This document shows positions 150 to 1,610 of a stretch of 34,912 nt of DNA, in pieces (the stretch's first letter is position 1; each line of letters starts with the position of its first letter). The notes under the pieces were generated by a model that searched no databases, was not told the DNA's origin, and was given only the letters and a program-made list of their open reading frames with translations. The stretch is from assembly GCA_044347385.1 (NCBI GenBank), contig JBIKUW010000001.1, positions 1 to 34,912 of the forward strand. Direction: 5' to 3'. Source of the stretch: Rickettsiales bacterium (GTDB taxonomy: Bacteria > Pseudomonadota > Alphaproteobacteria > Rickettsiales > CAIPFW01). Made by a program: the position numbers and the translations under genes.

Positions 150-1610
150 ATGAAAAACATATTTAACAATAATATATTATATGGATGGAGAGATAACTTT
201 CATAAATACTTGCCTAGAATGGCTAAAGCTTTAAGAATAAATAAACCGCAAACATCAATGGCAAACTCAGTTTACGACGGAACTGGAGATAAAAAACCTA
301 CAACTACATTTAAAATATCTAACAAAGATATAAAAACTATCAGAGATGAGGTTGAGAAACTGAATAAAGATATTGATAAGAAAAATAAGAACACTGATAA
401 AGAAAATAAAAAAATCACTAATGCGATAAAACAAGCAAACAAGGACTACAAATCTAACATTCAACCAAAACTTATTGATAAAATTAATAGAATTGAAATT
501 CCCAATTCTCTAAAAAAAGGTTTCGTTTTCAAAAATGATCCTGAATCTGTAGATAGCAATTTCTCAGAAATAGACAAATTTTTTACCAATCTGATTACAA
601 GAAAAGATCACAATATCAGAGCTCCAATCGGTAAAGATAAAAGCCCTTTATACACAGCATTACAGAATGTTGAATTATCTTTTAAAAATCACTTTTCTGA
701 GGAGCTGTATGACATAAATCAACAAAAGCAAAACACACAAGAGGGAGGTTTTGATATTGCATCCGGCTTAAACTCAGAACAGAATTACAAAACTATTACT
801 ATTCATGGACCAGATGACGATTTCTCTTCATTTGATGAAGAAACAGACAAAGAATACAATAATAGAATGAATGATTTTGATGATGATTTTGGTACAAAAA
901 GCGCTGAAGAAGCGAATAGATTGTACTCGGAACAAGAAAATGCAAAACAACAATCAAATATACCAACACCAAGGCCAACTGCAGAAGATAACAAAGTAAA
1001 TTCAAAAAAAATTTTTGATATCAATGATGTAATCAAAGGTAGGAAAAATCTAAAAAAAGTTTCTGACGATAAAAAAAATGATAGATCATCAGCAAACTTT
1101 GCAGATCTTAACAAAAATGACTATGCTGAAAAAATACTTGAAAATGAGAATGTTAAAAAGATACTTGAAAATGCAAATCATAGAGATAGCATGAAAAGCA
1201 ATAAAAACAACTTTGAGCGTGATGACAGTGAGTGGGAAATAATACAACAAGATAGATATTCTAAGCGCTCAAACTCAGAACCTGATATAGGTAAAACAAC
1301 AAAAGATAATATATCTCAGGATAAAGAAAGAAAATTAAATAACAATTCGCACCATCACCATTCTGACGGGGAATTATCCAAAAGGCGCCCTATCGATCAA
1401 AATTTAAAAAATGAATTGGGTAAGATGAGAAAATTTATTGATGCAGATAATGAGTGGGCTCAGGATACTGATGAAGGAATCAAAAGCAGTAAGACAGAAA
1501 GAAAGAATAGTGTATCTGACATTATAAGCAAAGGAAGAAGAAGTAGCATGGATTTCGCTGAAGATCATGAAAACAGTAAAAACAAACCAGTCGGAAAAGG
1601 AATGAATTAA
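150..1610 (+). CDS. hypothetical K/N/D/E-rich protein without signal peptide or TM segment; carries WH2-like and acidic-Trp motifs (candidate secreted effector)
   Basis: 486-codon ATG ORF and the only long ORF at this locus. The antisense ORFs 267..464, 799..1005 and 803..1114 are low-complexity mirror frames. No family recognised by eye. Confidence 0.6.
   Translation: MKNIFNNNILYGWRDNFHKYLPRMAKALRINKPQTSMANSVYDGTGDKKPTTTFKISNKDIKTIRDEVEKLNKDIDKKNKNTDKENKKITNAIKQANKDYKSNIQPKLIDKINRIEIPNSLKKGFVFKNDPESVDSNFSEIDKFFTNLITRKDHNIRAPIGKDKSPLYTALQNVELSFKNHFSEELYDINQQKQNTQEGGFDIASGLNSEQNYKTITIHGPDDDFSSFDEETDKEYNNRMNDFDDDFGTKSAEEANRLYSEQENAKQQSNIPTPRPTAEDNKVNSKKIFDINDVIKGRKNLKKVSDDKKNDRSSANFADLNKNDYAEKILENENVKKILENANHRDSMKSNKNNFERDDSEWEIIQQDRYSKRSNSEPDIGKTTKDNISQDKERKLNNNSHHHHSDGELSKRRPIDQNLKNELGKMRKFIDADNEWAQDTDEGIKSSKTERKNSVSDIISKGRRSSMDFAEDHENSKNKPVGKGMN

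Follow-up and report, generated by a model that had tools for sequence, protein, structure and literature searches.

Conserved WH2-like and acidic tryptophan motifs in the disordered tail of a Rickettsiales orphan protein, a candidate mimic of actin nucleation-promoting factors

RickA, ActA and BimA are the established bacterial mimics of nucleation-promoting factors (NPFs). In ActA and BimA, short acidic motifs with a tryptophan and actin-binding motifs, both located in disordered regions, recruit the Arp2/3 complex. RickA, found in Rickettsia and in metagenome-assembled genomes of 'Candidatus Tisiphia', has been described as an NPF mimic with a ~95-residue repeat region that encloses a G-actin-binding domain, and with proline-rich repeats (PMC11077975). 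Here we analyze a 486-residue protein of a Rickettsiales bacterium, encoded by a complete open reading frame (ORF) at positions 150..1610 on the forward strand of a 34,912-nucleotide stretch of DNA (assembly GCA_044347385.1, contig JBIKUW010000001.1, positions 1 to 34,912), which in its entirety we call the window. A previous reading of this sequence alone had seen in the protein the WCA order of class I NPFs, i.e. a WH2 motif (W), an amphipathic connector (C) and acidic motifs with a central tryptophan (A), and had proposed it as a candidate mimic of actin nucleation. The strings on which it relied are present at the residues it gave. Overall, its observation is confirmed and its interpretation is partly supported, since its main motifs turn out to be conserved in homologues, whereas profile comparisons with WASP-family proteins remain weak.

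Compared by its description, RickA resembles the 486-residue protein in that both are bacterial and without a Sec signal, have a helical N-terminal region and carry WH2-type and acidic motifs towards the C-terminus. It differs in its ~95-residue repeat region and its proline-rich repeats, neither of which is seen in our protein, and no RickA-like protein was among the four matches of an exhaustive phmmer search through 1.84 billion representative proteins, a library for which the presence of RickA was not confirmed. ActA has an internal acidic motif of the DEWEEE type, similar to the DSEWE of the 486-residue protein, but the order of its elements is different, with A preceding the actin-binding and C-like regions. 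Further, ActA and BimA are anchored at the cell surface, either by a signal peptide and a transmembrane segment or as an autotransporter. The 486-residue protein has neither form of anchor; no signal peptide or transmembrane segment was evident in it by eye.

Searches of the 486-residue protein against Pfam and NCBIfam gave no match, nor did a comparison of the whole protein with PDB, including its N-WASP and WAVE1 chains. Besides the query itself, the exhaustive search retrieved only three distant, unannotated metagenomic relatives, two of full length (P0005, 376 residues, and P0007, 627 residues) and one comprising the N-terminal domain only (P0006, 157 residues). Word-indexed homologue searches, for which the protein itself and two profiles served as queries, did not enlarge this set, a scan of metagenome contigs with the family alignment led to the same organism only, and no paralogue was found in the window or the flanking loci. 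The family is without detectable homology to any annotated protein, and it is restricted to a narrow clade with 30% GC.

An N-terminal domain of ~185 residues is common to all four members (41-48% identity, 60 invariant columns), whereas the tails that follow it are much more divergent and of unequal lengths. With the tails alone, composition-adjusted BLASTP aligned the window protein to P0005 in a single alignment reaching from the WH2-like motif through the second acidic tryptophan motif (E = 2e-11) and to P0007 with E = 3e-5; P0005 and P0007 matched each other in two segments (E = 8e-26 and 1e-15). These significant scores argue for homology of the tails in spite of their divergence. P0006 (L093, 3974-4447) ends after the N-terminal domain and is followed by nothing but AT-rich non-coding DNA, in a SpoU-flanked context as for P0007; the allele may be truncated, or the assembly may break here. 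In P0007, a fourfold tandem repeat of QEING is inserted right after the N-terminal domain (residues ~187-206, L091 ~5700-5760).

In the window protein considered by itself, the motifs of the tail are weak; the homologues change this picture because the segments that had been flagged are the conserved islands. We aligned the tails of the three full-length members (window protein, P0005 and P0007) with MAFFT E-INS-i and compared four windows, residues 286-304, 322-341, 355-364 and 431-443, which had been set by the sequence-only reading before any homologue was known, with the remainder of the tail. Invariant residues make up 21 of 62 positions in the four windows and 18 of 234 elsewhere, an enrichment with a one-sided Fisher P of 9e-7. 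They are K296, L301, K302 and K303 in the WH2-like motif, K322, N323, K328, N332, E333, L339 and E340 in the segment 322-341 (KNDYAEKILENENVKKILEN), F355, R357, D359, S360, E361, W362 and E363 in the first acidic motif, and D431, W436 and D441 in the second. The check that the sequence-only reading had called for, conservation of LKKV and of both tryptophans in orthologues, thus comes out in its favour: LKK[VI] and the two tail tryptophans, W362 and W436, are invariant in P0005 and P0007, the only two full-length homologues. Judged across the homologues, the motifs appear clearly non-random and form islands of conservation in a divergent tail. In AlphaFold2 models this tail is predicted to be largely disordered, with a predicted local distance difference test score (pLDDT) below 50 over most of residues 268-486 and with short helices where the motifs lie.

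The WH2-like motif (residues 286-304, 1005..1061 on the forward strand) reads KKIFDINDVIKGRKNLKKV and comprises a hydrophobic helix face (I288, I291, V294/I295), a K-G turn and LKKV; its counterparts are IIDEINKGPKLKKV in P0005 and LLDDLNKDNIRNLKKI in P0007. The P0005 motif shows the canonical spacing of two hydrophobic residues, x, x, hydrophobic, x, x, G, x, x and LKKV, as in N-WASP LLDQIREGAQLKKV (the N-WASP, WASP and WAVE1 sequences were checked against PDB chains). In P0005 (II-DE-I) and P0007 (LL-DD-L), two hydrophobic, two acidic and one hydrophobic residue precede a linker and LKK[VI]. The window protein is degenerate at this pattern (I-N-D-V-I), more so than the two full-length homologues. 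The hydrophobic moment of the WH2-like helix is 0.42-0.49. A strict regular expression (hydrophobic-x3-hydrophobic-x4-7-LKK[VIT]) finds all three full-length members, at positions that align with each other, but it is permissive, as 0.7% of the shuffled versions of the window protein and 0.7-1.5% of shuffles across the family match it too. The likeness to the WH2 core that had been claimed thus holds at the level of the pattern and in all three members, although the copy in the window is degenerate and, as shown below, none of them is recognized by the Pfam model. Taken from the window sequence alone, the motif seems barely above chance and would not by itself justify the claim.

Two comparisons at the sequence level, both weak, point to WH2 motifs. 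In a phmmer search of PDB (177,635 sequences), a 37-residue fragment of P0005 had four matches, of which the top one was 3m3n_W, a triple-WH2 construct of N-WASP (E = 0.0025 summed over three repeats; single repeats are non-significant, with independent E-values of 76-570), and another was the Spire WH2 'DDD' construct; Spire and N-WASP were both aligned in register. With hhalign, a sub-profile of the family's WH2-like region had as its best local match the WH2 motif of a four-sequence alignment of the WCA regions of WASP, N-WASP, WAVE1 and WAVE2, all of them mammalian, with weak P-values of 0.021 and 0.13.

The P0005 motif also resembles the WH2 motifs of WIP and verprolin, as IIDEINKGPKLKKV matches LLSDISKGKKLKKT in its spacing and at the K-G-x-K-LKK positions. 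Moreover, an NDRS-like segment follows LKKV, recalling LKKTVTNDRSAP: KNDRSSA in the window protein (residues 309-315, 1074..1094, forward strand), with D311 invariant, aligns with KDRSEA in P0005, and we take it to resemble the NDRSAP extension of WIP/verprolin-type motifs. The two differ in that the family motifs reach no Pfam WH2 score, in that the window protein has its glycine one position off and an asparagine in place of one paired hydrophobic residue, and in that the spacing from LKKV to NDRS is five residues rather than two.

Further WH2-like strings occur elsewhere. P0007 has a second one, LLNDIQKFQFKKN, downstream of its LKKI. In the genome of the window, a 676-residue orphan encoded ~4 kb upstream of the gene for the 486-residue protein (L003 3856-5886) also matches the strict expression (VGSAVYSKAHLKKT) and is without an acidic tryptophan motif; this match is probably due to chance.

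Downstream of the WH2-like motif lies the conserved helix that had been taken for the amphipathic connector (residues 326-345, AEKILENENVKKILENANHR, 1125..1184, forward strand), in which six of 20 residues are invariant. It is followed by the first acidic tryptophan motif, NFERDDSEWEI (residues 354-364, 1209..1241, forward strand), with seven of 11 residues invariant (F-x-R-x-DSEWE). The sequence-only reading had identified this motif correctly, as FERDDSEWEI occupies residues 355-364 (nucleotides 1212-1241), but it had quoted 11 letters for a range of ten residues and placed the nucleotide limits slightly off. The second acidic tryptophan motif, DADNEWAQDTDEG (residues 431-443, 1440..1478, forward strand), has the counterparts FDDEDDWGLGDDD and FDTDDWNLADDD in the homologues. 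It is directly preceded by a basic amphipathic helix, IDQNLKNELGKMRKFI (residues 415-430, 1392..1439, forward strand; FLKQNLKARRQHF in P0005), in which L419, K420 and R427 are invariant and whose hydrophobic moment of 0.24-0.51 compares with 0.28 for the C motif of WAVE1. Helix and motif together form a unit, residues 415-443, which the sequence-only reading had not described. With its succession of a basic amphipathic helix and an F-acidic-W motif, it appears to be a better C-A-like unit than the helix at 326-345, and its helix the best C-motif-like element of the protein. Of the 45 tryptophans in the proteome of the window, five have at least four acidic neighbors, and two of these five are in the 486-residue protein, which has three tryptophans in total.

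In the hhalign comparison to the WCA alignment, the first acidic tryptophan motif had the A motif as its best match (P = 0.01) and the helix at 415-430 the C motif (P = 0.015), both weak. Each element finds its cognate in the WASP/WAVE proteins, with P-values of 0.01 to 0.13. We also built small hidden Markov models (HMMs) of the W, C and A motifs from the reference sequences and scored each tail against 1000 composition-preserving shuffles. The A-motif HMM scored as well or better on 48 shuffles for the window protein, on none for P0005 and on three for P0007; in the window protein, the second acidic tryptophan motif scored below the best match.

The tail is laid out like the WCA region of WASP, N-WASP and WAVE: a WH2-like helix with LKKV (residues 286-304), a helix (326-345) and an acidic stretch with a tryptophan (354-364) follow each other in the same order, which also holds for P0005 and P0007, though only at the level of patterns. 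The span is similar as well, with ~55-90 residues from LKKV to the first tryptophan in the family (58, 53 and 88 in the three proteins) and about 40-55 in WASP, N-WASP and WAVE1. The acidic motifs share the F-acidic-W form, FDDEDDW and FDTDDW in the homologues compared with DFEDDDEW in N-WASP and EFDEDDW in WAVE2, and there is a conserved arginine in the basic amphipathic helix before the second motif. Unlike in these proteins, the tryptophan motifs are internal rather than C-terminal, there are two acidic-tryptophan units, and no poly-proline region is present; the N-terminal domain has no relationship with either WH1 or the WAVE (Scar) homology domain, and no homology is detectable. We consider the resemblance to WCA suggestive at the level of patterns; the profile statistics do not establish it.

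Evidence for a host association of the family comes from the contigs of its relatives, which have 30% GC, are bacterial and carry the family gene in a neighborhood other than that of the window, with genes for a SpoU methylase, ATP synthase gamma and ParAB. The contig with P0007 (L091) contains an intact ARF1 gene (7631-8173) whose product is ~80% identical to eukaryotic ARF1 and matches ARF1 chains in PDB with E = 1e-96; Gly2 is retained and the gene has a GC content of 31.5%. Behind it follow fragments of a second, diverged copy of the Arf family (8204-8743). Arf fragments are also found on the contig of another relative, L089, which stems from an independent assembly, at the same position upstream of parB-parA (14640-15311). 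The ARF1 gene looks like a recent capture from a eukaryotic host. The presence of Arf genes beside bacterial genes in these contigs is good evidence for an intimate association of the clade, or at least of a part of it, with eukaryotes.

The best-supported description of the protein is that of a modular, effector-like orphan whose disordered tail bears at least five conserved short linear motifs. We propose that this lineage-specific protein combines a novel helical N-terminal domain of ~185 residues, which probably serves in targeting or secretion, with an intrinsically disordered, K/N/D/E-rich tail carrying conserved motifs of eukaryotic type, and that it may be secreted and so be delivered to, or exposed in, the cytoplasm of a eukaryotic and probably protist host. 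There, the WH2-like motif at residues 286-304 would bind an actin monomer, while the acidic tryptophan motifs, especially in the unit at 415-443 but also DDSEWE at 358-363, would engage the Arp2/3 complex. The resulting layout, W - helix - A - linker - C - A, could activate Arp2/3. Of the mechanisms compatible with the motifs in sequence, order and spacing, mimicry of class I NPFs by a WH2-like site and Arp2/3-binding acidic tryptophan motifs is the most specific; it is plausible in our view, although we advance it tentatively.

A wider proposal, which we regard as rather doubtful, is that these proteins form a new family of bacterial NPFs, independent of RickA, ActA and BimA, in an uncultured, AT-rich freshwater clade that lives within protists and has captured the ARF1 of its host, and that the family is built from a novel N-terminal domain, one WH2 motif and two acidic-tryptophan units. 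If true, this would be an independent bacterial route to the hijacking of Arp2/3 and a case of convergent WCA mimicry beyond the medically studied pathogens, and it would suggest actin-based motility or entry in symbionts of freshwater protists. The W-helix-A ... C-A layout could then engage both CA sites of Arp2/3 from one polypeptide, a natural single-chain design with two acidic-tryptophan motifs that bears on how two CA motifs activate the complex. Even with another target, the family would offer a clean case of an orphan protein from bacteria in which linear motifs of eukaryotic type are conserved, and it marks a host-associated lineage that carries a near-eukaryotic ARF1.

Several results weigh against actin-nucleation mimicry. 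Foremost, the sequence-only reading had stated that it should be given up if WH2 signal were missing even at permissive thresholds, and this is largely what we found: Pfam PF02205 had no match at E<=10 to the full protein, to its fragments of 23, 48 and 174 residues, to P0005 and P0007 or to the motif fragments of these homologues. Peptides of similar size used as controls, 23-28 residues long, were recognized at 36.3 bits for WASP (E = 4e-9) and 49.0 bits for WIP (E = 4e-13), well above the gathering threshold of 23.1 bits. As formal membership in the Pfam family fails, "WH2-like" is apt wording for this protein, and "WH2-domain protein" is not. A 41-residue fragment around the motif of the window protein found no match in PDB, the three-sequence family profile retrieved no WH2 motif there, and the WH2 HMM scored at least as high as on the real tail in 151 of 1000 shuffles for the window protein, 16 for P0005 and 208 for P0007, which makes the scores of the window protein and P0007 non-significant.

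Further points concern composition and the remaining elements. The sequence-only reading had itself cautioned that LKKV and acidic runs come cheaply in a protein so rich in K/N/D/E (K 13.6%, N 12.3%, D 10.3% and E 7.2%, together 43%), and rightly so: a WH2 expression in the style of ELM matches 20% of the shuffles of the window protein and 20-44% of shuffles across the family, and among the 30 proteins of the window (9.4 k residues) even the strict pattern has a match in MurD as well. The helix at 326-345, although conserved, is barely amphipathic, its hydrophobic moment being 0.02-0.15 compared with 0.30 in the C motif of N-WASP, and has no match to a C-motif profile; the C-motif HMM found nothing in any of the three tails. 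Profiles of helix plus acidic tryptophan motif, run against PDB, matched only unrelated chains (SENP1 and designed helical bundles), even though N-WASP and WAVE1 CA chains were present, and the weak P-values of hhalign derive from very small profiles. The acidic tryptophan motifs lie 50 and 124 residues from the C-terminus, a real poly-proline region is lacking in the 486-residue protein, the contigs examined showed no secretion system, and the argument from conservation is built on three sequences.

The conserved islands in the disordered tail and the ARF1 of the relatives point to host targeting but not to a particular target, so that a host-directed effector with linear motifs for partners other than actin has to be considered. 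Its targets could be the tetratricopeptide repeats of the kinesin-1 light chain, the appendages of adaptors or COPI, or Atg8/LC3, and LKKV would in this case be part of an unrelated basic helix or a localization signal. The missing formal match to a WH2 or CA profile favors this explanation, as do individual motifs: WEII (window protein) and WEEI (P0005) agree with the core of an LC3-interacting region (LIR), W-x-x-[ILV], after acidic residues and a serine, and the two tryptophan-acidic motifs, ~75-140 residues apart, resemble bipartite ligands of the kinesin light chain. Upon closer comparison, however, P0007 departs from the LIR pattern (WENQ) and motif 2 shows it in none of the three proteins, the FxDxF motif of adaptor ligands is not conserved, and both the combination of a hydrophobic helix with LKK[VI] and the WASP-like F-acidic-W form are left unexplained. 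We consider such an effector rather unlikely.

The individual motifs were dismissed as follows. The W-acidic motif of kinesin-1 ligands has the consensus [LM]-x-W-[DE]. In all six acidic tryptophan motifs of the family, the position two before the tryptophan is S, N or D, and in motif 2 the tryptophan is followed by A, G or N instead of an aspartate or glutamate. As a conserved motif, the LIR or Atg8-interacting motif ([WFY]-x-x-[LIV]) is contradicted by WENQ in P0007 and by motif 2 throughout. The FDDDF string that had been suggested as an adaptor-ear motif is indeed found at residues 243-247, but none of its five residues is invariant and the region is absent from P0005; it is probably incidental.

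A purely bacterial role, be it structural, regulatory or surface-associated, with the likeness to WCA a coincidence favored by AT-rich composition, seems distinctly unlikely to us: it would agree with a single-sequence motif that is not beyond chance at the scale of a genome (the MurD match and the ELM-like expression), with the missing Pfam WH2 signal, with the lack of a secretion signal or system in the loci examined, and with the N-domain-only copy P0006, which suggests that the N-terminal domain may hold the core function, but several conserved short motifs in a long disordered tail are unusual for housekeeping proteins of bacteria, the family is confined to a narrow 30%-GC clade of which a part acquired a eukaryotic ARF1, and three separate W-, C- and A-like elements occur in canonical order.

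Two other elements of the tail differ in their conservation. The proline patch that had been noted upstream of the WH2-like motif, NIPTPRPTAED (residues 270-280, 957..989, forward strand), is present but has none of its 11 residues invariant; it is partly shared with P0007 (SNIPPAPP), while the region is absent from P0005. We therefore rejected it as a functional element and regard it as probably incidental. Near the C-terminus, a basic, serine-containing island, SKGRRSSMDFA (residues 460-470, 1527..1559, forward strand), corresponds in the alignment to GKRRDSFS (P0005) and KGKSDSFT (P0007), with K461 and S466 invariant. It resembles a site for basophilic kinases of the RRxS-hydrophobic (PKA) type and may be one.

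The N-terminal domain (residues 1-187, 150..710, forward strand) is conserved and predicted to be helical, with a long helix at ~58-113. It has no relative in Pfam, NCBIfam or PDB, where a profile search gave nothing meaningful, and AlphaFold2 models were of low confidence (pLDDT 51 from the single sequence, 44 from the four-sequence alignment of the N-terminal domain) and too poor for a fold search. The start codon at 150 is backed by conserved N-termini across the family (MKNIFN, MKRVLN and MRKVFN), and a sigma-70-like promoter match lies upstream of this ATG (89..117, forward strand; TTAACA-17-TATTAT, 10 of 12 positions, a match to the consensus only). At least nine contigs, which stem from several freshwater metagenomes and SRA runs, encode an identical protein, apart from one variant with K349T, and the ORF is intact in all metagenome copies.

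The window itself has a GC content of 31% and contains housekeeping genes (groES/EL, tkt, glyA, murD, def, iscS/iscR, mltG, hslV, bioD, serS and RNase P RNA) mixed with about a dozen orphan genes. Its bacterial nature follows from a full-length class A RNase P RNA (16720-17088, forward strand, 254.8 bits) and a tRNA-Val(GAC) (31540-31610, reverse strand); Rfam and tRNA scans found no rRNA or tmRNA on the available contigs. Searches of Pfam and NCBIfam with the neighboring orphan proteins returned coiled-coil noise only. The convergent neighbor of the 486-residue protein is a lipoprotein-like orphan of 245 residues with an LVGC lipobox (1615-2352, reverse strand), which has a weak, sub-threshold match to the Ehrlichia TRP75-related N-terminal model (E = 9e-6; its 26 bits fall short of the cutoff of 75).

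In the metagenome copies L002 and L004, which are otherwise identical, several neighboring genes are split (window 3288-3965 and 7833-9854, and the upstream orphans). A 225-residue orphan is broken into parts of 82 and 126 or of 157 and 47 residues, the upstream orphans of 676 and 359 residues are also split, and transketolase is called at 616 residues in the metagenome copies as against 673. These splits are either frameshift errors or a sign of ongoing pseudogenization.

GroEL (4820-6529, reverse strand) has an N-terminal extension of ~30 residues and scores 502 bits with TIGR02348, for which the equivalog cutoff is 582. It is 41-45% identical to 80 GroELs that were retrieved from genome contigs, a retrieval driven almost wholly by the generic C-terminal pattern MNPGMGGM; the loci come from widely separated taxa (Bacteroidales, various Alphaproteobacteria and others), and hardly any other gene is common to them and the window. 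GroES (~6623-6919, reverse strand) reaches no more than 36% identity with the GroES proteins of these 80 loci, and the two chaperonins look like an unusually divergent chaperonin pair. Next to groES lies the gene of a pentapeptide-repeat protein of 176 residues (7090-7620, reverse strand), which has PipB (E = 2e-12) and PipB2 (E = 5e-9), type III effectors of Salmonella, among its matches and may be a further protein directed at a host.

Between mltG/yceG and hslV, which in the window is without its usual neighbor hslU, there is an ORF-free spacer of 1.14 kb (23327-24465) with a GC content of 0.37, higher than that of the window. No Rfam family matched the spacer. It is densely filled with short dispersed repeats, for example two 64-nucleotide copies that are 95% identical, and GCTAGGATGACA occurs four times in it and once more at 27742, against 0.08 occurrences expected by chance. 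These repeats may be elements resembling miniature inverted-repeat transposable elements (MITEs) or repetitive extragenic palindromic (REP) sequences.

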